In this document: one piece after another, positions 15,925 through 55,630 of the stretch
Numbering within the stretch: position 1 is the stretch's first letter
Layout: each line of letters opens with the position of its first letter
Origin: Mizuhopecten yessoensis
Lineage: Eukaryota
Assembly (NCBI RefSeq): GCF_002113885.1
Contig: NW_018480066.1
Location: 651,786 to 715,785, forward strand
Direction of reading: 5' to 3'
DNA length: 64,000 nt
Made by a program: the position numbers and the translations under genes
The notes under the pieces: generated by a model
Seen by the model: only the letters and a program-made list of their open reading frames with translations
Told to the model about the DNA's origin: nothing
Database searches by the model: none

Positions 15925-18900
15925 ATGAGTTGGTGGAATGCTAGCAGCTTCTCGGACCTTGCCTCTCAGGCAATCAAAAATGCACAAAAGAAAATTGACA
16001 AAGTTCTGGAAATTGATGAAGAAGGATTAAAGGAAACAAAACCATGTAAGACTTGGCAAAATAATAGATATTCAATAAGAATTTCTAGGAATGCAAATTA
16101 TGAGTAAATATTCTATCAGAGACAGTGGTAATTTGTATGTTTATAAACGATAGATCAAATAGCAAGCTACAGATATTCATGTAATCTCTAGATTTAATTT
16201 GTTAAATATGAATAGAATTAAATGTTGCACAGAATACAGCTATCCATATAATGAAATGTTTTGGAAAAGATAAGACTACATGTTGTGCCATAGGTTAGAT
16301 CTAAAATAGATATAATCTGTTGAAGAAGTGGTCAGTGAAGGACTGTTTTCAGATTTTAACTGTCTTATTTTTATTATTCTGTTCCTTACAGCTACCATTA
16401 ACAAACCTACAAAGGAAGAGACTTCTAAACAAGAAACTAAAGATGATTTCTGGAACACATGGGTACCTTCTCCCCAGTCTGAGGGGGCAGAGGGAGCAAC
16501 AGAGAAGGAGGGGGCTAGGAGCTCATGGTCCACTATGCCTTGGGGTTCAGTCCATCAAGATCTAGAACCCAAGAAAAAAACAAGTCCAACTTTACCAACC
16601 TCTCCTGAAAGCAAAGGAATGAAGCAGAAAGCATTAGATCCTATATCTACTACAGTGCAACAGTCTGGCGTCAGTAAAAAGGCAGGTCATAGTGCTAAGT
16701 CAGAGGGGAAAAGTTCAAAGCGAAGTACAGACAAGGTTACGAAAAATAGTTCTGACAATGATAGGAAAGCGGTAGGCAATATTCCAGTAGTGGAAAGTAA
16801 AGAAAAGGTGGAGAATTGGGATTCTTCCTCAGCCTGGTCTAGTGAACCACTGATAGCCTGGCAAGGTGAAGGTCAAGAGAGTGGTGCTGACCTTGATCTT
16901 GAAGGCTCACAACATGCATCATTTCAAGGTAAAGGCCAGGAATTAAGGCCTGACTCAAATTATAAAAAGCCAAATAAAGAAAACGAGGAAAGTTTGACAG
17001 ATCTTTGTCCTGGTAACAAGGAATTGAAGATGCTGGAAAAAGAGGATTCAAAAGGAGATAAAACAAAGGAATTATTACCAGAAGATAGTGATCAGACTAT
17101 AAGTAGCAAGACATTAGATAAGGATCTATCTGATTCACTATTGGATGATAAAAGTACTGACTGTAAAACAGACAAATCCAGTAGTATATCTGTGATAGAG
17201 TCTGTAGAAGGGGTGATTTCTTTCAGTGATGACAGTGATGGGAAATGTGACCAGTCCAGCAGTGTGTCACTCCTACAGACTGACTCAGGGGAGATGTTTC
17301 CATGTCATAGTGAGGGAATCGAGGACCACACAATAGATTTAGATAGTGTTGTGATTCAAACGAGCGAAACTCAAGATTCAGGGATGGCATCTTCTGTGAT
17401 GGACCATGAAGTAAAGGAAAGTCCAAATCCAGCAGATACGGGATCTGAATTGGTGATATGTGAAAACATTGACACTGAAAAACATGCAAGTGAAGGGAAA
17501 GATTCTGAAACACAAGATGATAAAGAAGAAGCCTTAAGTGAATCTACAAGTGACCCAGGTAGTGTTATGACAAAAATAGATTTGAAGGAAACTTCAGTTG
17601 ATGCAGACAATGTTCTTGCCCAATCCTCCATTTCCAGTGGGTCAGGTGAAGGCACAATGGAAGAGATTATTAAAGATCCTGGGGTTACTGAAATAGATGT
17701 GTTAGAAAGTTTAGGGAGCGTGCACAGCCCCTCAACTTGTAGTTCTTTGTGCTCATCAGACACTAGTAAACTGGACAGTAGCATGGACACACACACCTCC
17801 GAAGACACAGTGGTGGACAATCGAGGAGAGGACGAACGTGTAGGGGAGATAAGTCAGGAGGAAGAGATCAGTGCAGGGGAGGTAACTCCAGAGGAGGCTA
17901 GTTATAAGGAAGTAACTCAAAATACAATGTCTGGTTCAGTTCAAGTTTCTCAGCAGGAAACTGGTGGTCAGGATTTGGCAGAAATCCAAGATGATTCTCA
18001 TAAAATTACAGATAGCATGTTCAGTGTATCGTCAAGTAGTTCATATGTAAAGTGTATGATAGAAGAAGCTATGGAGGACAACAGCAGAAGTGAGGATAAC
18101 AATAGTGATTGTCATTCCACTGGAGGAGAGAAATCGGAGTGTTCTAGGAGCACCGGAGGACAGGAATCTGGTGATGATATTGACACCACAACATCATCGG
18201 ATATTGAAATAATTTCTACACCAAATTCTATAAATAATGGTGAACCCAACAAAATGGTGGATCTGTCACCACTGAAAATTGCATTACAGAAAACAGCTCG
18301 ACGTGAAAGTCCCACCCACAGAAGGACAGACAGTGCGTCAAGTTCCAGCACCCACAGCCGTGAAGGTCAAGGGGAACAACTGAGTCCTGGTCGAGACAGT
18401 CTGGAGGATGAAAGCCAGTATGGTGAGGACAGAGATCTTCCAATTGACAAGCAAAGTAAATTTTGCTTTTATTGTTACTTTGCTTTTGCTCTTTGCTTTT
18501 TTATTTTATTGAGAACGTTGTATAAAACATAATTATGAAAATGTAAAAACAACTTTTCATTTTTCTAATTTTTGTAATGAAATTGATATGATATGACTGC
18601 TACCTGATCACCAATGTACTACTGATCTGTAAATTCTTTAAATAGTTCCTCCTATAGTCCTTGGGCAATAGACACAAGTATTAACTTTGTACCAGATTTA
18701 ATAATGATGTCAGTTATACTGAATATGTTAACTTATTCTAGACAAATCAACAGGTAGTTAAAACAGTGTGTCAAATTCTTGTAACAAATTTGAAAAAGAA
18801 ATCAGAGTTGATGTAGACATTCATTATTTACACATTTTATTACAGGTAAGGGTCACTAATTTGTAGGATCGTTAATAATATTTAGAACAACTTTCTTCAT

Positions 18901-21900: not shown

Positions 21901-24900
21901 CACTAATAACTTTCACAGCTTTGCCAGGTGTGATGAAACCACTTACCACTTACCTTTGGCATTGTTTGTTTCATTTGTCGTTAGTTTCATTACTTACTAA
22001 TTAGGCCATTGCATGTACCACAGAAAAAGAATTCAATATTGAAAGAGATAAATTACTCGTCAGTTACGAACTGATTATATTTGATAGAATGTTTTTATTC
22101 TTAATTTACTAAAAGTAACGGCGATGGTGAAGTAAGTCAATGTAGGTATACTAGCTGTTGTCATGAGACCAGCGTTACAGGACATGAAGGTGGTATCCTT
22201 AAGACTACTGGAAACAGTTCTAGGTGGTATCCTTAAGACTACTGGAAACAGTTCTAGGTGGTATCCTTAGGACTACTGGAAATAGTTCTAGGTGGTATCC
22301 TTAAGACTACTGGAAACAGTTCAAGGTGGTATCCTTAAGACTACTGGAAACAGTTCTAGGTGGAATCACAAACAAGTGACTAATTCTTCTTAATACAGCT
22401 ATGCTAGGTTGATTTTAGATGTATCAGCAAATTGATTAACCAATAATTATGTTTTAAATTCTGGTAAAAAGTAAACAATTGCTGGGTAAAAAATGAATGA
22501 AAACAGAACGAAACCTACTAAATATGTAACAGGAGAAAGAGAAATATTCGGTGAGACTGGGGTTCGAATCCGGGACCCTCCAAACTTTAGACGGACATTC
22601 CTCCATTCCTCCAACCTTTAACAAAGTGTTCAACCCCGAAGACACACAAGACCCTATACCACCTTCTGTGGGTATATTTCATGGGGCGCCAAATTTGTAA
22701 CAGGAGAAAGAGAAATGCATGGCCAGACCAGGGTTCGAACTCGGGACCCTCCAAACTCTAGATGGATGCTCTACTAATTGAGCAATCTGGTTTCCGACAA
22801 TCGACCCATGGCCAGTCCAGTTCCGACACAAATGTATATAAAGTCATTTTATTTTGCCCTTTTATTTGCAGTTTATAATGACTGCCATGTCATTGCATGC
22901 TGTTTCTCATAACACATACTTCGGACTTGACTAATGAAAATGAGTAAGAACATGAGTAAAAAGGTTTTCCAGTAAATGGTTCAGTAATTGAGAATTTATT
23001 GTGTATTTAGCAGAATACTTATAATCTTGAAACTGTTTCTCAGAGTTTCCCATTTGCGTACTTTAGTTCCATAGGACCTGTTCCAGACTGGCTATCAGTG
23101 TCTGTGATTATCACTTACATGTGTACTTCCCTATCTATATATTGACTTGAACAAGTCTACAGGCTATTGACCAGATATATAGATATATTGATCAACACAT
23201 ATTAGACTTGTTCATGTCTATAGAAAGGAAATCATCATATAGACTGTTAGCCAGTCTGGTCTTATTTGCTTAAGCTTCAAATTGAGGGTTGTTTTCAATT
23301 CTATAGATACATATATAGCTAGGTTGTTGGTTATTGAGATATGTTTTACGTTTCTTATTTACTGCTAATTATACTGTTGTTTAACCTACTGTATATACAA
23401 AAAGATACAATTGTTATAAAGTAGAAAGATTACAATTGTATAACCAAGTAAAGTACAATTGGTAGACTAGGTACAGTAAGATACAATTTTTAAACCAAGA
23501 TAAAAAACAATTGTTGAACTAAGTACAATAATGTACAATTGTTTAGCGAAGTACAATAATGTACAATTGTTTAGCCAAGTACAATAGTGCAAAATTGTTT
23601 AGCCAAGTACAATAATGTACAATTGTTTAGCCAAGTACAATAATGTACAATTGTTTAGCCAAGTGTAATAACTAGCTTGTTATGTCATATGAGTAACATG
23701 TAATCTAAGTACAATAATGTACAATTGTTTAGCCAAGTGTGATAACTAGCTAGGCTATGTCATATGAGTAACATGTAACCTAAGTACAATAATATACAAT
23801 TGTTTAGCCAAGTGTGATAACTAGCTAGGCTATGTCATATGAGTAACATGTAACCTAAGCACAATAATGTACAATTGTTTAGCCAAGTGTGATAACTAGC
23901 TAGGCTATGACATATGAGTAACATGTAACCTAAGCACAATAACATATATGAAAAGAAACTCGCTTAACAGTAGAACTTTTAAGAAAAAAATCAGTTCAAA
24001 TTTTATTTTATTTCGTAATGTTGAAAATAATTGGAAATCTTTAATTGATCTGGAATATGTTATGGACATTTCTACATTACTGGTATTATTCAATATTGAA
24101 ATTATCACTTGATACCAATTTATTTGGTTTTCTGTTTTATTTAGACATGCTATTATTATATAAACATTTCCAATATTTTCCTTAGGGATGATTCATGTAT
24201 AGTTTCCTACCTGGCTAATATGTGTTCTAGTATTTCTACAAGTATGGGGAAATTCACTACCCAGACATGCATGCTTGACCGCAACAATGTATTTTTCCAT
24301 TTAGTGTAGAAAATTTAATCAAAATTACCTATTTCTCACACTTATTGAAATCAACATTTAGGGACATAATTATCTTGTTTTCCAAAAAAAGTTGTGATTG
24401 TGGAGTCTGATAATTTCTTTTTGAATTAAGAGGTATTTCTTGAACTGAATTTTTTGAAGCCTCATAATTATCAGGGATTTATTAATTATACTTTGAAAAA
24501 TATCTAAATTTTTGTAAACTTTGAAATTACATTCACCATTTGTAAAAATAAATGTGAATAAATAAAAATCTGACTGTTCGATTGTAACCTTCCAATTGTT
24601 AGTTAAGACAATTTGATTTGATATTGATATTTATTTTAAAAGTTTCTATCACAATTTAGTCTAAAGGGTGTTAAGATCAACTATAAGTTGTACAGTGGAA
24701 CCTTGTTAGTCTTGACACTTTGGTGTCGGGGAAAATAAATAGAATTTAAAAGAATTAATATTTGCATTTTATTAGTGTTTGTGTTGCTGATCCTGAGGTT
24801 CCATTAATTATTATACCAAGGACTAATCTAAATCAGTTAGGCATAAGTGAGAATGAGGAGATTTAAACAGGTTTTTGATACAGTATTTCATAGAGATTTT

Positions 24901-33900: not shown

Positions 33901-36900
33901 TGATTACACGACACAAATATCTGTCAGACCCAGATTATAGGGTTTTGTTATGATAATTTGATTTCCAGTTTTTCATTGAGATTGTATATATCTGGAGATT
34001 TGTTTGCTGCTCCTAGGAATGTTGGTTCAAGAGCTAATTTTACGAAAATATTGTTGTCCTAGGTGGTTCAAGAGACTTTTGATATGAAAATGATCAGCTG
34101 AATGCCATTTGACATTTTTTACAGGTGAAAAGTTATCTAAACAGCAGCTACAAAGCAACAACATTGTAAAGAAGTTACGAGTGAAGGAGAAGGAAAACGA
34201 CTCACTGTTAACAAGTCAGAAGTAGGTGTCTATCATTAACATTCTGTTTACCTCCCTGTTAACCAGTCAAAAGTCAGTGTCTATTATTAACATTCTGTTT
34301 ACCTATCTGTTAACCAGTCAAAGGTCAGTGTCTGTTATTAACATTCTGTTTACCTCCCTGTTAACCAGTCAAAAGTCAGTGTCTATTATTAACATTCTGT
34401 TTACCTATCTGTTAACCAGTCAAAAGTCAGTGTCTGTTATTAACATTCTGTTTACCTCTCTGTTAACCAGTCAAAGGTCGGAATCTGTTATTAACATTCT
34501 GTTTACCTATCTGTTAACCAGTCAAAGGTCAGTGTCTGTTATTACCATTCTGTTTACCTCCCTGTTAACCAGTCAAAAGTCAGTGTCTATTCTTAACATT
34601 CTGTTTACCTCCCTGTTAACCAGTCAAAAGTCAGTGTCTATTATTAACATTCTGTTTACCTCCGTGTTTATCATGCAGCCTTCATCCTGCAAACCTTTCA
34701 GATTTCATTGCAAGATGTGGTGGGTTCTGGTGGCAAAATCTGAAAATGTCTAAAATGTACATGCAATGACCTCTATTTTTAGCCCACCATCATCTGATGG
34801 TGGGCTATTCAAATCACCCTGCACCCGTGGTCCGTCCGTGGTCTGTGGTCCGTCCTTAAACAATTCTTGTTATCGCTATTTCTCGGGAAGTACTGGAGGG
34901 ATCTTTCTCAAATTTTATATGTAGGTTCCTCTTGGTCCTTAGCTGTACAGGGCAATTTTTGAGACTGATCGGATAAACAACATGGCCGACAGGCAGCCAT
35001 CTTGGATTTTGATAGTGAAAGTTTGTTATCGCTATTTCTCGGGAAGTACTGGAGGGATCTTTCTCAAATTTTATATGTAGGTTCCCCTTGATCCCTCGTT
35101 GTGCATGTTATATTTTGAGACTGATCATAAAAACAAAATGGATTAAAAGAAGAACTAAACAGATCTTTCTCATATTGAAATGATCGATTCTATTTCTTTC
35201 ACATTAAGTACTGTACTAGTAAATATGTGAAATGACAAACTCACTTTGAAGGTTGGCTTTCATACACATCAGTATTAAGTTTAGATCAAAAGTTACCTCA
35301 AGGTGCATTTACTGTTAACATGACTCGATCAAACAGATTAGAGGAAAGAAGAGAAAAGATTGAACTGACAAAGAACTGGTACAAAGGTGGGCGCCAAGAC
35401 CCCTCTGGGATCTCTTGTATAGTATAGTAGCCTTTTTGCACCCTAACTTTTATTTTTTCATTTTTCCAGAAAACAGATCGATGATCAACAGAAAGAGTTG
35501 GACCACCTCAGGACTGTCTGCGAATCCAAGGATGTAATGGAGAAAAAACAGACAGGTCTGGCATAAAATAATAAAAATCTGACATTTCTGTTATTAACAT
35601 ACCAGTCTGTAAAAAGGTTTAACAGTGAAATGTTTTAAGGTGCTTATAAAGATAGGTATAGTTAGTCTTTCATTTTGAAAGAATGCTTCAGGTTATATTA
35701 TTAGAAAAAGAAGTTCATGGGTGTTCACCTGTTTCTTCAAACTTTGGGTCAAATTCCCCAGAAGTTAAGAAAAGAATTCAATTACCGGTATAATGTATCA
35801 ACTGCAAAACTCAACTGTATGAAAATTGTTGCATTTTGAATTCAAGGCAAATCATTTAATTTTCAGATGGCATCACTCAATTGAATTCTGCTGTACAGAA
35901 ACAAGAGAGGGAGATTTCTAAGTTAAAGGTAAAGGACTAACGCATGTGATGATACTTATTGATTTAAGTTCTTGTTATATGTTAGCGTTAGAGCTGAGAC
36001 TTATACTCGCACACTGTGAGCAGTAGAGTTACATAGGGGAAGGGAGATTATGCAGTAACATGGACAGTGTGTAATAAGTAGAAACTATCCTGCGTGTAAC
36101 TTTCAACATATACAGTACACAGTTCATGTAATATTACTGGATGCAGTGTAACTAATTGTATTTAGATATTCTCATGTAACGAAGTCAAATTTTATGTAAT
36201 TAGTAATAATTGAGAAAATAATTCTATGGTGTTTCAGGGAGAGCTGACAGATGCCCAGGAAAGAGTGCGAGGTCTGCAGGCAGCACTGGACAACTCTTAT
36301 AAGTAAGTATGGTGTCTAAACAAAACAATACATATACAAGCCAGACACCTCTACAAACCAGACCTTCAAATAATCAGGTTCCATTGTATCACTATATAAA
36401 TTAAATCTGTGCAATACTAGAAATGAGATTAAGATAGAAACATCTTTTGGTTGTGCTGATATAAAATACTTCGTTGACAACCTTTTTGTGATACTATCCT
36501 ATATGATCTTAGTTGATTGACTGTACAGATGTTATTAGGTTATTAGTCCCTTACCGGTGAAACCGGGGGGGCTATAGTTTTCCTCTCCGTCCGTCTGTGT
36601 ACGTACGTAACACCAATGATTGTCAGCGCTCTAGCGGCTTCATTCCATGAAGGATTTTGATCAAACTTCACACAAATACAATGGATCATAATATCTTGGA
36701 CAAATTCGAGTTTCAAGGTTGTTCGGTCAAGGTCACCGTTTCTATTTTTAGAGAATCCTTGTCAGCGCTCTAGCGGCTTCATTCCTTGATGGATTTTGAT
36801 CAAACTTCACACAATTACAAAGGACCATAATATCTCAGACAAGTTTGAGTTTCAGGGTTGTTTGGTCAAGGGTAACCGTTACTATTTTTAGAAAATCCTT

Positions 36901-39900: not shown

Positions 39901-42900
39901 TCTGTTTACAGTCGACACTCAGAGCCAGCTGGCCATTGCTGTTGAAAAGGAGCGGTCAGCCAATGAGAATGTGATTGACCTCACGTCCAATGTGACTGCC
40001 CTGGAATCTCAGAATTGTCGTCTGCGTCAGGAGAAGTCACAACACATTGCTCAGCTAGAGATGCTAAAGACACGCGTTGAGGTATTGGAGGATGCCAAAA
40101 ATAGGTAAGTTAAAAGACATGTGACCTATTGTAGGTTGACTGGTGTACTGAAGTGTGAAAAAAGGTAAAAATAATATTTCATAATATTAGGACCAAATGT
40201 CAAGTGGCAAGATCATTACACATGGAATATTCAGAAAAAGCGTTTTTCTCCTGCCCACACAACTCCAACAACCCAGGTGGAGAATAAATTGCCTGTGGTG
40301 GATGTTGCGGTATCTGTGCTGTGCTGTAGCATTCAAGTGAGGTAGCACTATAAATGATGCCGTTGGAAGCATAGTCCCACTACAAACAGAACACAATACA
40401 TCTCCAGCACCCACGCAGGCATACACACATATAAAGCCAGGTGGTATAGGACAAGTATTTAGCACCTGATAAGGCAGCTCCTGCAAATTCCACAAACTTG
40501 TATTGATTAATGTATTTAATAATTGTAATGATTGTATAAATTGTATATCTATGAACTATAAAGCACTTTAGAGTGGCTTGTTCTAGCTAGATAGGGCACT
40601 ATATCAAACGTTGTATATTTATTTATTTATATATTATTATTATTAAACTCCTTCAAATTTCCTCTCTTTGATTTACGACAACGAAATTTCATATTCCTTG
40701 ATCAGAATATTTTTGCCTGTACATGTGTACTAGTGATTTTGAACAGACATGATGATAAATGATGACTTTGTTGAGGGTTATCGGTGCTAGAACGGCAGAT
40801 TTTATGTTTAGTGGTTTATAATTTTGGCTATTTCTTTACAATACGTTCATATTTCAGTGAAACTGCTCAAATTGAAATAGTGAAACACCAGATGTCTCAG
40901 GAATTATCAGAAGTCAAAAAGGAGAAGATGTTTCTGGAGACACAGCTGGACATGGAGAGGACTAAGTTGGACCAGGAGAAGAAGAAGATGGCCATAGCTC
41001 AAGATCAGATAGCCCAGCTTGTAAGTACACCATGAAACAGCAGGCCAAATTGGTAGAGTGCCCATCTCGAGTTCAGAGTGTCCTGAGTTCGAATCCTGGT
41101 CTTGCCATGCACTTTTCCACTCCCATTACACAATTGGTGAGCTTGCCAACCCTTGGTTTATGTACTAGGTGAATACTTGTCAAGGGGATACCCAAACCTG
41201 AGTTGTAAATAGTTGTAACTTCAGAGAAAAACGGAGGGAGGAATGGAGATGAACTAGACATTGTCAATTTCAGTGACCAGGTAGCTGAACTGGTAGAGTG
41301 TCCGTCTAGAGTTAGGAGGGTCCCTGGTTCAAATTCCGGTCTGGCCATGCATTTTTCCAAAGGTATACTCACCTGTATTTTGATTTTAAGGTAAAATAAC
41401 CTGTATTTAGGTAAAAGATAAAGTTTCTTGTATTTTGACTAGGAGCGGGAAATCCAGAGGCCACACTCTCGTGGATCAATGTCTCCCCAGAACCTCCAGC
41501 GGATGGACAGCATGTCAAGCTTTGGTGAACCGTCCGCTCTCAACACGTCCTTTACCCAGGTCTGTTAAATGTTTGTTGTCTTTATTGATAATTGTCTAAA
41601 TAAATATATACATGCTTAGTACAGTAAAAACATGTTTATAACATATACCAAGAGACCTACAAAATGAGTCCTCTTCAGTAAAACATGTTTATAACATACC
41701 AAGAGACCTACAAAATGAGTCCTCTTCAGTAAAACATGTTTATAACATATCAAGAGACCTACAAAACGAGTCCTCTTCAGTAAAAAATGTTTATAACATA
41801 CCAAGAGACCTACAAAATGAGTCCTCTTCAGTAAAACATGTTTAAAATGAACCACAGGGGACTAATAAGTTCTCTTTAGTAAAACATGTTTATAACAAAC
41901 CCAAAGGACCTAAACAATTAGTTCTCTACAGTGAAACATGATATACTGGTAACATTAAATAGTTACCAAAGAATAAGCCCTTTATTGTAAAAATAATAAT
42001 AATGATAAACCACAGGACCTATGAAATTGATTTATTATAAGCATTATTTGTATAAAATCAATGTCCAATAATATGATTTGGTTAAAGCAAGAATCTACAA
42101 TAAGCATAGTAGAACTTAACTTGTTAACTTCTGGTCTTTGTTTAACAGAGACATTGCCGGTAGAATCACTTTGTCCGTCTACATATACCTTTCTAGAAGA
42201 TAACTCCAGTTTTGATAGGCTGATTGGTACCAATCGTCTGATGTTTGTTCATAGTCATTGAAGAGAGACCCCTGTTATTTTTGTGTGGTTGGGAGTTTAT
42301 GTCAAGGTCGCTGTTACTAAGTAGAAGAAAAATGTTAAAGAAATAACTTTCAAACACAACGTGTTGATGACCCCTATTCCTGAGGGTATGAAGTTAAGAT
42401 AAATGTCACTACAACAAGAAATGAAAAAAAATCACCCATTAAATTTCTTCTTTAGGTGAGTTGATGAGGTGGATTAGGAGTAGACCTGAGTTTGACAGTG
42501 GGTAGAACCCATTCATACATACCGATTGGTTAATGGATTCAACACACCTGCGATCTACTCTCTCCTGTCTGTTTGAATACTGAATCTTTTATGCGAGAGA
42601 CTTATAATTAAAAAAGCATCATGTGTCAGTTGACTATGTGTGTCGAGTCATAGTGTGAACTTTCGTGTCAGTTGACTATGTGTGTCGAGTCATAGTGTGA
42701 ACTTTAGTGTCAGTTGACTATGTGTGTCGAGTCATAGTGTGAACTTTAGTATCAAGGATGACCCAGAGTTTAGGTGGACTTTCTAGAATGATGTTGAGAT
42801 TGGATCGATTTTGTTTTCAGGAAAAAATTGCCTTTGAAACTAGTGTTTCTGTGATGTTTTTGAAGATTGTGTTGACTTTGTTATCTTGAATTTGTGTTAC

Positions 42901-45165
42901 TAGGATGACCTTGAAAGGAACTTCCTGTTGTCCCCTGGGAGTAGTGGACTTGGAAGTCTGACAAAGTCCAGTCTGTATGAGAACATCAGACATAGTGGTG
43001 CTGCCAATCTACTGGAGAATCTACAGTCACAGCTAAAACTCCGGGAAGGGGAGATCACTCAGTTACAGGTACGTTCCATAGATTTGTAGAGGTTTGTGAG
43101 GACCTGGAAATGACCTTGTAATCTAGACACTCTGTGTAAAATTTAACTTTCAAAGTCAAATTATTGACAAGTTTTCAATACTCTGTAAAATATTTTCAAA
43201 ATTGATAAAATTCAGTGACAAAAGCATGTTTGAAATTATGCCAGGCTTTCACTCAGGATGCTATGCAGAATGTTGCTCAATAAGAAATGCATCGACATAT
43301 AATAATACACTGCAGTACTTGTCAAAAACGTGTGTATTACTGAGAAAACATTCAGATGGATTTTGTAACGTTGTTTTCCAGAGTGAAATCCAACAACTTG
43401 AGAGGACTAGGGAATCCATGGCTCGAGAGCTTGTCAATCTGACCAATCAGAATGAAGATCTCAAGAGTCAGGTGGAGTCATTACCAGTGATTAAGAACCA
43501 AATGCAGGTGTGTACAACACCCGAACGAGGTGTTTTCTGTTATTTTTTATTTCATTGTTGAATAATGTCAAGCTTTGTCATATCAGTGGAGTTTACCTCC
43601 ATATTCATCAAGAACAGTGTTTAATTGAAATAACCTCCCATGTATTTGTTATCACCAGGATCTAAACCAGAGATACAATGCCATGCTACAGATGTACGGT
43701 GAGAAGGTGGAGGAAGCCGAGGAGCTTAAGATGGATCTCCATGATGTCAAAGAGATGTACAAAACTCAGGTAAAATCTTAGTTGTGTAATTTGATGTCAA
43801 AGAGATGTACAAAACTCAGGGAAAATCTTAATTGTGTAATTTGATTTCAAAGAGATGTACAAAACCCAGGTAAAATCTTAGTTGTTTAATTTGATGTCAA
43901 AGAGATGCACAAAACTCAGGTAAAATATTACTGTGTAATTTGATGTCAAAGAGATGTACAAAACTCAGGTAAAATCTTACTGTGTAATTTGATGTCAAGG
44001 AAATTTACAAGACTGTGGTTAAATTCTTACTAGTGTGATGTCAAGGAGATGTACAAAACTCAGATAAAAATCTTTATATGTAATTTGATGTCAGGAGGTG
44101 TACATAACTCAAATAAAACTCATTCAAAATATACTTACACAATTGACCAATTTCAAAATCATCATCTAATGAGTTACTTGAACATGTAGTGGCGGGCGGG
44201 CGGGNNNNNNNNNNNNNNNNNNNNNNNNNNNNNNNNNNNNNNNNNNNNNNNNNNNNNNNNNNNNNNNNNNNNNNNNNNNNNNNNNNNNNNNNNNNNNNNN
44301 NNNNNNNNNNNNNNNNNNNNNNNNNNNNNNNNNNNNNNNNNNNNNNNNNNNNNNNNNNNNNNNNNNNNNNNNNNNNNNNNNNNNNNNNNNNNNNNNNNNN
44401 NNNNNNNNNNNNNNNNNNNNNNNNNNNNNNNNNNNNNNNNNNNNNNNNNNNNNNNNNNNNNNNNNNNNNNNNNNNNNNNNNNNNNNNNNNNNNNNNNNNN
44501 NNNNNNNNNNNNNNNNNNNNNNNNNNNNNNNNNNNNNNNNNNNNNNNNNNNNNNNNNNNNNNNNNNNNNNNNNNNNNNNNNNNNNNNNNNNNNNNNNNNN
44601 NNNNNNNNNNNNNNNNNNNNNNNNNNNNNNNNNNNNNNNNNNNNNNNNNNNNNNNNNNNNNNNNNNNNNNNNNNNNNNNNNNNNNNNNNNNNNNNNNNTC
44701 GGACAAGTTCGATAACCGCCATTATCCGACCGTAATTATTGGAGTTATTCCCCTTGGTTTCATTAATGCGATGCATGCGTTCCATGATGTTGTATTGCAC
44801 TCATTGATCTACCAGTTATGTTGAATGATTTCTCTTTTAATATCAATTACTCACAAATACTTCATATATTTCAATCATACAAACAACTGCTCATTCAATG
44901 TGTGGCGGGCGTATTATATACCGCCCGCGGTAACCTTGTTTTTTTATCTTTTTGTCATCATGACATGTCATGTGAAATGTGATTGGTGACTTGTCAATAC
45001 CTGGGACAACATATCTATAAATAGTGGTAGTGCTGTAGTGTTAACTGTTCCATATTTTTTTTCGACTTTAACATTTGATGACGGATTGGATCTCTGGAAA
45101 AGTGCCTTGGTAAAATTTAATTAGTTTTGTTTGTTTTGCAGATTGATCATTTACTCACAAAGTGA
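15925..45165 (+). CDS. TMF1: TATA element modulatory factor 1 (golgin TMF/ARA160), complete multi-exon gene
   Basis: N-terminus MSWWNASSFSDLASQAIKNAQKKIDKVLEI; GEKLSKQQLQSNNIVKKLR; ATRPLLRQIENLQ; C-terminal LQSQLKLREGE..YNAMLQMYGEKVEEAEELKMDLHDVKEMYKTQI. Phase-consistent GT-AG exons: 15925-16045, 16392-18455, 18977-19038, 31967-32070, 32614-32731, 33469-33524, 33803-33867, 34125-34221, 35470-35555, 35867-35928, 36238-36302, 37439-37595, 38455-38547, 39178-39232, 39553-39654, 39912-40104, 40858-41020, 41443-41559, 42904-43068, 43382-43507, 43659-43769, 45142-45165. Confidence 0.95.
20393..20734. mobile_element. hAT-type MITE
   Basis: TIRs cagggctgcaacaata / tattgttgcagccgga; exact 8-bp TSD GTCTCTAG (20385-20392 and 20735-20742); subterminal ACGAT repeats. 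Confidence 0.85.
22189..22363. repeat. 34-bp minisatellite, about 5 copies
   Basis: ggtggtatccttaagactactggaaacagttcta repeated. Confidence 0.9.
22525..22830 (-). mobile_element. Near-complete TRIM with tRNA-derived LTRs (Helenus-type), family A
   Basis: Minus strand: 5' LTR TGT..ACA (22830-22696) holding a tRNA-like A/B-box unit; PBS TGGCGCCC (22691-22684); short internal region; PPT ggaggaatggaggaa (22612-22598); internally deleted 3' LTR (22597-22525); flanks AATA/AATG. Confidence 0.85.
23440..23942. repeat. Compound minisatellite: 28-bp units grading into 75-bp units
   Basis: agccaagtacaataatgtacaattgttt repeats, then a 75-bp period (23705, 23780, 23855, 23930) containing the same core. 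Confidence 0.88.
24975..25058 (+). CDS. Candidate TMF1 cassette exon (84 nt, LQTVPEHTEVRLTRDSYCDSTSTSMASE)
   Basis: tttcag acceptor, GAG|gtttgg donor, open, phase 0-0 matching the host intron. Confidence 0.45.
25816..25898. mobile_element. Tiny TTAA-flanked MITE (piggyBac-like)
   Basis: TTAA-ctcattcacccctgaa ... ttcagggatgaatgaa-TTAA. Confidence 0.65.
27573..27641 (+). CDS. Candidate TMF1 cassette exon (69 nt, STTTNNTPTPPISPQTGISAGGQ)
   Basis: cttgtag acceptor, strong CAG|gtaagc donor, open, phase 0-0, GC-richer than flanks. Confidence 0.55.
28444..29043. repeat. 21-bp minisatellite with higher-order structure
   Basis: tactttatttgacttttgtgt repeats with recurring deletion variants. Confidence 0.92.
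29565..29716 (-). mobile_element. Degenerate solo tRNA-derived LTR
   Basis: Minus strand starts TGTaacgtgact; has ggtagttcagttggta and gggttcgaatcctggtctgg as in the family A LTR. Confidence 0.5.
29768..30327. repeat. 19-bp minisatellite, about 29 copies, two interspersed variants
   Basis: accacaaggtcattattat / accacaaggtcattgttgt. Confidence 0.95.
34205..34662 (+). repeat. 51-bp tandem repeat (about 9 copies) whose first copy spans the TMF1 exon/intron junction at 34221/34222
   Basis: Exonic ctgttaacaagtcagaa|gtaggtgtctatcattaacattctgtttacctcc is followed by copies ctgttaaccagtcaaaagtcagtgtct... Confidence 0.92.
34778..35418 (+). mobile_element. HINE/pearl-like non-autonomous Helentron
   Basis: ttttagcccacc hairpin (agcccaccatca..tgatggtgggct), gtcc microsatellite, two internal repeats, 3' ggtgggc + hairpin + ctcttgt. 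Confidence 0.8.
36540..37423 (+). mobile_element. HINE/pearl-like non-autonomous Helentron ending about 15 bp upstream of a TMF1 acceptor
   Basis: ttattagtccc start, tccgtccgtc, about 140-bp internal repeats, 3' ggggac + palindrome gtattgctttagcaatac + cttgtt. Confidence 0.78.
38532..38683 (+). repeat. Four perfect 38-bp copies spanning the TMF1 donor at 38547/38548
   Basis: ctcggaccttcagatg|gtaggtatttacttactggtgg x4 (38532, 38570, 38608, 38646). Confidence 0.97.
40190..40645 (+). mobile_element. Probable SINE or LINE2-type 3' end
   Basis: taaagcactttagag...gggcactatatcaaa followed by a (TTA)n tail. Confidence 0.4.
41041..41358 (+). mobile_element. TRIM with two tRNA-derived LTRs (Helenus-type, family A relative), decayed
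   Basis: tRNA-like unit ending ttACA at 41130; TGG-starting PBS-like site at 41135; purine tract gagaaaaacggagggaggaatggaga; second tRNA-like unit at about 41275-41347. Confidence 0.78.
41620..41940. repeat. 51-bp minisatellite, about 5-6 copies
   Basis: cagtaaaacatgtttataacataccaagagacctacaaaatgagtcctctt. Confidence 0.9.
42623..42750. repeat. 42-bp tandem repeat x3
   Basis: gtgtcagttgactatgtgtgtcgagtcatagtgtgaacttt. Confidence 0.9.
43742..44115 (+). repeat. About 50-bp tandem repeat (7-8 copies) whose first copy spans the TMF1 donor at 43769/43770
   Basis: gatgtcaaagagatgtacaaaactcag|gtaaaatcttagttgtgtaattt repeated, diverging with distance. Confidence 0.93.
44185..44941 (+). mobile_element. 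Probable HINE-like element spanning assembly gap 44205-44698
   Basis: (GGGC)n before the gap; 3' ggcgggcg..ccgcccgcgg hairpin and ccttgtt end. Confidence 0.5.
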
Positions 45166-49975: not shown

Positions 49976-52900
49976 TCATGTCTTTCGCCGTGTGATGTGA
50001 TCATAGATGACTGCCTGAACATACTTGCAGGTTTCAATGACGGTCCGGGTGGAGTTATCACCGGGTGTGGTCACCTGTAAATACACATAGTCCCTTCTTG
50101 TAAACAGAATTCAAAAGTGGTTTGCTGTAATTTAGTCTGAACACTTTCCTTTCAATAAATGCTTTAAGTTGCAGATTCATAAACATTTCGTAACTTAGGA
50201 AATTCCTTAACTAAAGATTTCCAATAGGAAACAGTGATAGAAAATTTTAACAAAATTTAAGATTTTTTTTAACAAAATTTTAGAAAATTTCCTTAAATGG
50301 TATCTGTGTTTGAGGAATGTCCTTAAGTAGAGGAAAGTTTGTGAAACTGGGGTCAGAAGAAATTCATTATTTAGATCTAAATTACAAAAAAAAAAAGAGA
50401 TGACAAAATGTAAAAAAAAAGGCAAGGAAAACCAAACATTCATCCATCCCTCAATAGCAGCAGAGACAATTTATACATTCAGTTAAGTACGACACTTATT
50501 TATACTATCATCATTTGCCAAGTTAATCCTAGCATTTCTTTGTACTTGTTTTATTGTTTGCACTTGTTTATGCTTGTGTTATTGTTTAGAGTGGGAAATT
50601 TCTGATGAATCCTGTCATTATATGCAGCAAATGGTGTAAGGTAAAGATAGCACTGAGCCCATCCTTTCTTTGGTGTCTGCATCGAGTCCCTTACCTTAGG
50701 GTCAACGTTGATGATTTTTCTGTCTCGCTTGTTTTTGAACAACAGTCCAGATGCATTCTCTGCAATGACCTGGTAGTTAGGTGTTGGGTTAGATGTGGAT
50801 GTCTGTGTTTCCCAGTTGTAAAAGCTATAAAATGTCAAAAATTCTTTTACAAATGTGATTAAATCAGGTTTCCTTTTTATTTCAGCCATTATCTCAATTG
50901 AGAAGAAAATGCAATATTTCAACTTACTGTAAATCACATTGTTTTGGAAGTACAACATTGTATAAAAAAACCCACTGTACAAGTAAAAATTCAGAAATAG
51001 ACTTCTTCTTGAATTAAAAGTGAATGCATAATTTACTGGAACAGAACACAGTTATTTCTTTGCTTGGTCATCAAAATACATGTCTACCAATATTAAATTT
51101 AATCATATATGGTGTGTCATCAATAAGTATTTCTGATAAGCTATACCTTAAATCAGACGGCCTAGGCAATAATCTTTTCCTTGCACCAAAGTATGGTTCA
51201 AAATCTTCTGTCTTCAGTCTGTGAGCATAATCTACATAGCCAGAAATCTCCTGTCCTCGAGCATTCTTGTCTCGGATGAAGATGATTGTCTACAAAAACA
51301 AAAATTTAGACAAATCTTGATGATGTTTAATTGTATTTACAATTCTCCCTAAAGATTTGAAGCTTGCACTATTTTCTTAAAAGAATAAGAAATGCCCAAT
51401 TCCATTCCTTAAACAAAATTACAGTGATATGTATATATATACATATATTTTATCTATGCACCGGGAAAATCCTGGAATTTGAGAGCAGTGGGCCATTTCA
51501 GCAATTTTTAGTCAATATCAAAATTAAGAGGGGCCATTGTTTGTAAAATTAAAAGAAAATTGAAACATGGAGGGGTCAATTTCAGTTTTGAGGGGTCAAT
51601 GATTATCCCTGTGATGCATATTTTATTTTCATTTTCAAAGTAAAGAAACTGACAAACGTTTGTTAAACAGAAGGCCTCAACAACATACCATTAGTTCCCC
51701 TTAATATAAATATATTAGCAACGGAATCCCATATCAAGATCATCTTATTCTTGTATATTTTTTCAAAAAGGAAAACCTGTTCCGAAATGTTATATTTTCA
51801 CTGTGCAGAAATGTTCCATTTTCTTCATAACTTACAGTCATTTTCCCGCTCCTGTTTGCCTCTTCTCTATGAGCAAGTGCTTTCAAAAATGGGTCCTTCA
51901 GTTCCTTTCCTGAACTTGCAAGTGTCCTTTATAACATATGCAATTAGATGATTCAAAAATTCGTACAATTTATATTTGACTGTAAATGTGAGATCAAACA
52001 TTTATACAGGTAATGATAACAATTGACGATCGTTGACTTGATGGTAATGTGGAGATACACCAACACTCATAATGTATGTTACTTTCAAAAGTAGTACAGT
52101 CTAGTTACATACATCATTTGACTAAAGGTTTTACATTAAACACCTATACCTACTATATCTTGACATTTTACTTCACCCTTTAAGAATGTCAGCTAAATCA
52201 TGTAGATCTACTGAAGAAGGTAAAGGAAAGGGCCTATCTGGGACTGGTTTGACTGAAAATGGAGTCCTGTGCTACCGTATGGGACCCAAAAGCAGTGAGA
52301 GACTTCTATCCAGACTCCAACATGCCCAAGTGGATAAGATCGAAATGGTATAGGGATGAACAGCCCGGTGGGTCCTTAACAGATATAATAACACCTCCAG
52401 TGTCACAGACGTGCCATCAGATCTAGGAAGGAGGACACTGGAACACTGATGTGCTGACGCCAGACTGACAGTATTCTATAAAATCTGGAACAACCTGGTA
52501 GCCATCAACCCGAAGGATCAGCTCATCTCGTAGCAGAGGCCGTGAACACCAGTACCGGCAGATCCAACCCACCAAAGACTATACCAGATCATCTTTCTAC
52601 CCTCGAACTGTAATCCAGTAGAACAGCTTGCCAAGAGACAGAAGTCTCGAAGATCAACCACAGTTGCCTCATCTAAACTTAAACTTTCTCCCTTCTTACT
52701 TTACTTTCCCTATATATTCACACTTTCCTATGCTTTCGATCAAACTTTGCTTTATTTTTTCCCTTTCGCACATGTTACATCTGGTGATAATCTTCGGATG
52801 AAGGACTACCAGTCAACAGGCAAAAGCAGGTACTACGTAAACATTCCAAAATTTTACTTTAAACATGTACTAGCATAAAGGAAGAAATGGTGGTTGCTCA

Positions 52901-55434: not shown

Positions 55435-55630
55435 TGTAGTGGAACTACATGGAGTCGGACTGGGTTGATCGTCTGCGACCAGATCTAGAAAGCTCAATTG
55501 GTAGAGCGTCCGTCTAGAGTTTGCCAATCCTTGTTTCAAGCATTGTGTGATTGCTTAGCAAGGATATCAAACCCGAGTTGTAAATAGTTGTGTCTTGGGG
55601 ACAAAGACTGAGAAAAAGGAGGTAGGAGGG
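55435..55630 (+). mobile_element. Internally deleted Helenus-type TRIM (family A relative)
   Basis: Starts TGTagtggaact; agctcaattggtagagcgtccgtctagagtt; internal segment similar to 41144-41216 (gagttgtaaatagttgt); purine tract gagaaaaaggaggtaggaggg. Confidence 0.7.

Follow-up and report, generated by a model that had tools for sequence, protein, structure and literature searches.

A tRNA-bearing Helenus-type TRIM in the scallop Mizuhopecten yessoensis and a sister subfamily with a different primer

On the minus strand of the window (the whole stretch of 64,000 nucleotides that was analysed), the 306-bp element at positions 22525-22830 carries two head-to-tail tRNA-like units, and the question it raises is whether such a structure is a pair of joined SINEs or a TRIM and, in the latter case, how its RNA would be made, primed and inserted. 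The element is a TRIM, not a SINE. We hold with high confidence that it is an old, decayed, non-coding Helenus TRIM, characterized by tRNA-derived LTRs, a primer-binding site (PBS) of the tRNA-Lys type and a 4-bp TSD, and that intact copies of its family are likely transcribed by Pol III and mobilised by Gypsy-type elements.

Anatomy and setting of the window copy

All coordinates of the element refer to the minus strand. The 5' LTR (22696..22830, 135 bp, TGT...ACA) runs from a TGT at 22830 to a TGTTACA terminus at 22696, and it differs from the 128-bp LTR of the family by a 6-bp insertion and an older type of 3' end. Directly after it come AATT and then TGGCGCCC at 22691-22684. The PBS (22680..22691) is complementary to the 3' end of host tRNA-Lys(CTT) at 10 of 12 positions, compared with 12 of 12 in younger copies. 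The internal part (22598..22695) is non-coding and 87.5% identical to the 88-bp internal part of the young copy L015. It measures 98 bp from LTR to LTR, or 90 bp if the duplicated GGAGGAAT is taken as an eroded LTR start, and not the ~75 nt of the first-pass annotation. It includes a decayed copy (22626..22643) of a pre-PPT hairpin common to this and a related family, and ends in a PPT (22598..22619), in whose purine tract GGAGGAAT occurs twice. The PPT abuts the 3' LTR (22525..22597, 73 bp, TGT...ACA), which lacks ~55 bp after its TGT and with them the A box. The TSD copies read CATT beside the 5' LTR (22831..22834; AATG on the plus strand) and TATT beside the 3' LTR (22521..22524; AATA on the plus strand), with three of four letters alike. 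This layout is the one that the first-pass annotation had described, with TGT-LTR-ACA, AATT followed by a tRNA-Lys-type PBS, a PPT abutting the second TGT and an internally deleted second LTR; its reading of the flanks as a 4-bp TSD also holds, a length that is fixed across family copies.

The tRNA-like unit of the 5' LTR (22720..22792) matches Rfam RF00005 with 33.1 bits (gathering score 29). Its A-box-like motif (22774..22785) has one or two changes relative to younger copies, and its B-box-like motif (22732..22742) is changed as well. In the 3' LTR, a B-box-like motif at 22561..22571 is the sole box remaining. The boxes are therefore distributed as first reported, but they are not full in the 5' LTR, where both are changed. 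A functional tRNA gene at 22720-22792 was considered and rejected, as ARAGORN calls no tRNA anywhere in the window, this unit included, and acceptor-stem positions are unpaired in the Rfam alignment.

The changed boxes of the 5' LTR and the PBS match of 10 in 12 show that the window copy is decayed, and it is old. It has no coding capacity and is 306 bp long, compared with ~344 bp for intact copies. Because the 3' A box is lost and the PBS has changed, the copy is unlikely to be mobile today. The shared 3' parts of the two LTRs are alike at 58 of 70 ungapped positions, with 10 transitions and 2 transversions, and a separate comparison gave 83% identity over 76 nt. Both LTRs carry the older 3' end, which none of 18 young copies has, and this fits LTR identity at the time of insertion. 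The copy joins an old-type LTR to a Lys-type internal part.

The window copy is antisense and probably intronic to a TMF1-like gene. It is flanked by a 738-aa frame (16316-18532) on one side and, on the other, by exons with weak TMF matches, namely TMF_DNA_bd at 34124-34222 and TMF_TATA_bd in 43127-43561, both below cut-off. As the 738-aa frame has no Pfam match, we infer its assignment to this gene. No empty allele was seen at the locus in contigs of four runs from four studies, which span both junctions, although contigs drop rare variants. A minisatellite with a 34-bp unit in 5.3 copies (22188-22367) lies 160 bp from the element, and no link between the two was seen. Elsewhere in the window are a broken non-LTR retrotransposon (~4500-7800, plus strand) with an RVT_1 match in 5579-6148, and an exon with a DUF4464 match (50551-51051, minus strand) that belongs to a second gene, encoded on the other strand. 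A 110-nt Rfam tRNA match of 49.8 bits (11260-11369, minus strand), likely an intron-bearing tRNA gene, lies ~230 bp away from where a gene may start, near 11597.

Copies in the host genome and their transcription

The best 40 of 2571 candidates from a DNA search of the host genome yielded 84 matches, and exact junctions between the LTR end and the Lys PBS occur at 60 places, with 0 for the control. The 75 loci fetched include 16 that duplicate a place already covered and so represent 59 distinct loci. Thirteen of these were left out as truncated, one-ended or without match, and the remaining 46, which include the window copy, were scored; this sample is biased to well-kept copies. Intact copies consist of a 128-bp LTR, an 88-bp internal part and a second 128-bp LTR, and the median identity of LTR pairs in the 46 loci is 0.90. 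The young subfamily has a 2-nt spacer before the PBS, versus 4 nt in the window copy. Six of the 46 loci are tandem arrays, each with two to four internal parts. The array at locus L003 (C1665, 994 bp) has five LTRs and four internal parts with a period of 216 bp; its outer LTRs are alike at 125 of 128 positions, and ARAGORN calls five tRNA-Ser(AGA) genes within it. Ten tRNA-like units in four younger loci are called by ARAGORN as tRNA-Ser/Tyr genes, so younger copies can inflate tRNA gene counts.

Judging from their sequence, intact copies are likely transcribed by Pol III from the 5' LTR, with a start at the tRNA-like unit, near LTR position 32. In the standard LTR cycle, the template spans the R region of the 5' LTR to that of the 3' LTR. 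Four or more T residues end Pol III transcripts. A template made by Pol III would consequently have to run past the T-run behind the tRNA unit of the 5' LTR but stop at the corresponding T-run in the 3' LTR, and the tRNA-like unit would then be the R region. The minus strand would be primed by host tRNA-Lys(CTT) and the plus strand by the PPT, and a Gypsy integrase would make the 4-bp duplication. In the 46 5' LTRs, the T-run has at least five T in 28 cases, four in 11 and at most three in 7; the window copy has three T in both LTRs. A run of at least five T could end transcription by Pol III before the PBS is reached, and the three T of the window copy could be too few to halt the enzyme. The T-run therefore offers a concrete test of whether and how Pol III makes the Helenus template past the element's own terminator-like run. 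The paper on Helenus mentions termination for Cassandra only (PMC10886601). A contig run labelled as RNA covers the element and its flanks, with an element-to-flank depth ratio below that of DNA runs, although contigs cannot show transcript ends.

The same TRIM might instead replicate through RNA made by Pol II, either by read-through from a host gene or an array or from a weak LTR promoter, with the A and B boxes being a relic or serving only to make short tRNA-like RNAs terminated at the first T-run. Most young copies do have a run of five or more T behind the tRNA unit, like the T-runs behind host tRNA genes, and Helenus has yet to be put to a Pol III test (section 4.1 of PMC10886601). However, in a 128-bp LTR any Pol II promoter would have to fit into the ~30 bp that precede the tRNA unit, and in the families presented in the available parts of PMC10886601 the A and B boxes are recognisable across bivalves, brachiopods, nemerteans and wasps. 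We consider a Pol II origin unlikely, although it retains appreciable weight, and prefer transcription by Pol III.

Insertion features and described relatives

Two head-to-tail tRNA-like units are also what a dimer of tRNA-derived SINEs mobilised by a LINE would present, and tRNA-headed SINEs are common in bivalves according to the accessible portion of PMC4758252. The genomic copies make this origin highly improbable. A 4-bp TSD is exact in 19 of the 46 loci and has at most one mismatch in 34, whereas shuffled flank pairs gave exact matches in 32 of 2070 cases (1.5%) and near matches in 10%. Exact duplications of 2, 3, 5, 6, 7 and 8 bp were found in 4, 1, 1, 0, 1 and 0 of the same loci, and the TSD match is two letters or fewer in 12. 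Copies begin with TG in 40 loci and end with CA in 42, TGGCGCCC is retained in 33 and TGGCGCCCAAC in 28, and a PPT abutting the 3' LTR holds across family copies. The arrays alternate LTR, internal part and LTR, and in 1 of the 46 loci the 3' end has six A residues within 12 nt. The TSD length fixed at 4 bp, the TG..CA ends and a PBS and PPT that abut the repeats refute the SINE dimer. The first-pass annotation had preferred a TRIM and had proposed that the ends and TSDs be confirmed in genomic copies, as they now are; the poly-A tails and variable TSDs that it had named as marks of an ordinary SINE do not characterize the family.

Helenus was defined by Kojima 2024, where 51 bivalve families are listed (PMC10886601), and the assignment of our element to this group, already proposed by the first-pass annotation, is borne out by its tRNA-derived LTRs, its 4-bp TSD and its homology to published scallop Helenus families. 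Two of these, Helenus-2_PeMa from Pecten maximus and Helenus-1_ArIr from Argopecten irradians, have LTRs of 129-130 bp and internal parts of 90-93 bp in the accessible entries of PMC10886601 (Data S1 / Table S1). They share the Lys PBS and the 4-bp TSD and, compared by eye, are co-linear with the window family in LTR and internal part. When aligned by eye to the printed supplement, the 3' LTR of L015 agrees with Helenus-2_PeMa in 117 of 130 columns, and the window 5' LTR with 108 of its 129 published letters. On this LTR match of ~90%, we take the family to be the counterpart of the described scallop family Helenus-2_PeMa. The 4-nt spacer before the PBS is common to the window copy and both published consensus entries, from which the young subfamily differs by its 2-nt spacer, 128-bp LTR and 88-bp internal part.

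The proposal that the family may be undescribed stands only in part. The available supplement of Kojima 2024 has no exact entry for it, and four 21-22-nt family motifs have 0 matches there (PMC10886601), but the co-linear families with ~90% similar LTRs are known from two scallops. Helenus-1 to -4_MiYe, as given in the accessible part of PMC10886601, belong to the same group, but their LTRs are 151-159 bp and differ in sequence, and none is the window family. The group and the scallop lineage are thus already in print, and what is new is an unlisted member and an Arg(ACG)-primed sister subfamily, both unlisted relative to PMC10886601 only. The literature on TRIMp3 and on scallop non-autonomous LTR elements gave no later description, and the accessible portions of PMC6934838, PMC7215508, PMC13570524 and PMC4758252 add none. 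Copies like the printed Helenus-3_MiYe are also present in the host genome (by eye), and the window itself holds a second Helenus family at 12127-12371 (plus strand), a 5'-truncated copy with an internal part and one LTR that resembles the printed Helenus-4_MiYe by eye and so indicates that the host is a scallop.

Cassandra of plants is like Helenus in having a Pol III-type unit in each LTR and in forming tandem arrays, according to the accessible text of PMC7215508, but its unit is 5S-derived and not tRNA-derived, and its transcription has been shown, whereas here transcription is predicted. The bivalve element biv-TRIM also occurs as arrays and solo repeats, as here, but differs by its 202-218-bp repeats and the lack of a clear PBS, and the accessible text does not mention a tRNA-like unit (PMC6934838).

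Primers, a sister subfamily and candidate helpers

The tRNA-Lys 3'-end pattern occurs at eight places in the host genome, and of six such loci fetched, ARAGORN calls five tRNA-Lys(CTT) and one tRNA-Glu. The older 3' end of the window LTR, together with the 4-nt spacer, is found at 65 places, and most of the 30 viewed enter another internal part. These represent a sister subfamily, whose PBS pairs over 14 nt with host tRNA-Arg(ACG); the 3' end of this tRNA occurs at 18 places, and five loci were checked by ARAGORN. There are 24 exact junctions of LTR and Arg PBS in the host genome, of which 12 were scorable. A 4-bp TSD is exact in 3 and near in 7 of these 12 loci (3/132 and 20/132 in the control), the median LTR identity is 0.82, and internal parts are 95-136 bp. 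Lys and Arg LTRs are 0.84-0.85 alike, and Arg LTRs are 0.84 alike among themselves. Both subfamilies share the 3' portion of the internal region, including the small hairpin and the PPT. The Arg-primed sister subfamily is older and has the same LTR with a different internal part. Since two PBSs accompany the same LTR and a shared 3' internal part, one LTR lineage holds two primers, tRNA-Lys(CTT) and tRNA-Arg(ACG). Decayed Arg-type copies are also present in the window at ~41045-41365 and 55437-55630, both on the plus strand.

In a tree of 38 LTR copies, the subfamily labels cluster, with 7 changes versus 15.4 when shuffled, part of the older groups having been chosen by the very 3' motif that is counted. 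No branch is strongly supported, and we therefore claim no order of events or direction of primer change. Primer changes have been described in Helenus generally (PMC10886601), and the Arg(ACG) subfamily is a clean case of such a change on one LTR. Its PBS motif has 0 matches in the available supplement of that paper, whose Fig. S2C has no Arg primer for bivalves. A tentative extension, which we regard as possible though not probable, is that a Helenus lineage switched its primer, and hence its helper, by a swap of the 5' internal part, and that the template RNA arises through a leaky Pol III terminator, passed in the first LTR and respected in the second, with the length of the T-run tuning activity. 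The LTR, pre-PPT hairpin and PPT would have been kept in such a switch, and the whole tRNA-like unit would, if this is true, be the R region. Priming by the tRNA-like unit of the element's own LTR, which does sit just upstream of the PBS, is the least probable of all these readings and can be excluded, because the 3' end of the unit pairs with only the first 4 PBS letters (12 for host tRNA-Lys, 14 for tRNA-Arg), and two different PBSs go with the same LTR.

A Gypsy-type element would likely supply the enzymes for copying and insertion. Among 45 Lys-PBS matches, the 20 viewed include coding elements with a PNMA-like gag, RT, RNase H and integrase in Gypsy order, and locus L165, a Gypsy-type element that shares this Lys PBS, has termini of the form TGT..ACA and a TSD of 4 bp. 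The search for an autonomous Gypsy partner that the first-pass annotation had suggested thus yielded coding elements with the same PBS, but eight Lys-PBS loci extended to 9.9 kb have no similarity to the TRIM beyond it; one of the eight contains an unrelated inserted copy. Among loci with the Arg PBS, no coding element was found, and one locus is outside the family. This locus (L174, on C76724, the same as L163) is an LTR element of ~3 kb with an Arg(ACG) PBS. Its LTRs are 87% alike and ~2.7 kb apart, and the sequence between them contains no open frame of 120 aa. It and the Arg subfamily have ~22 letters at the PBS in common.

Five Helenus-3_MiYe-like loci (L142, L145, L151, L155 and L158) have a PBS perfectly complementary to tRNA-Lys(CTT) over 17-18 nt, in contrast to the imperfect PBS of the consensus in the accessible published entry, although the search pattern selects perfect matches. 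A perfect PBS of this length would be expected if the primer tRNA had been copied during reverse transcription.

Whole internal regions fold no better than shuffles in five of six sequences, and we therefore kept only the small pre-PPT hairpin as a lead. A pattern for this hairpin, with a 7-bp stem and a free third pair, matches 367 sites versus 7 for the control, counted regardless of whether they lie in a Helenus copy. In the first 50 sites listed, the third pair is C-G in 24, G-C in 22 and mismatched in 4 by hand count. The C-G hairpin is the form of the window family and the G-C hairpin that of the printed Helenus-2_MiYe (by eye), so this contrast is a single change between two families. 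In the Gypsy-type loci L164-L166, a short inverted repeat of other sequence lies ~10 nt before the PPT, which is the position of the Helenus hairpin.
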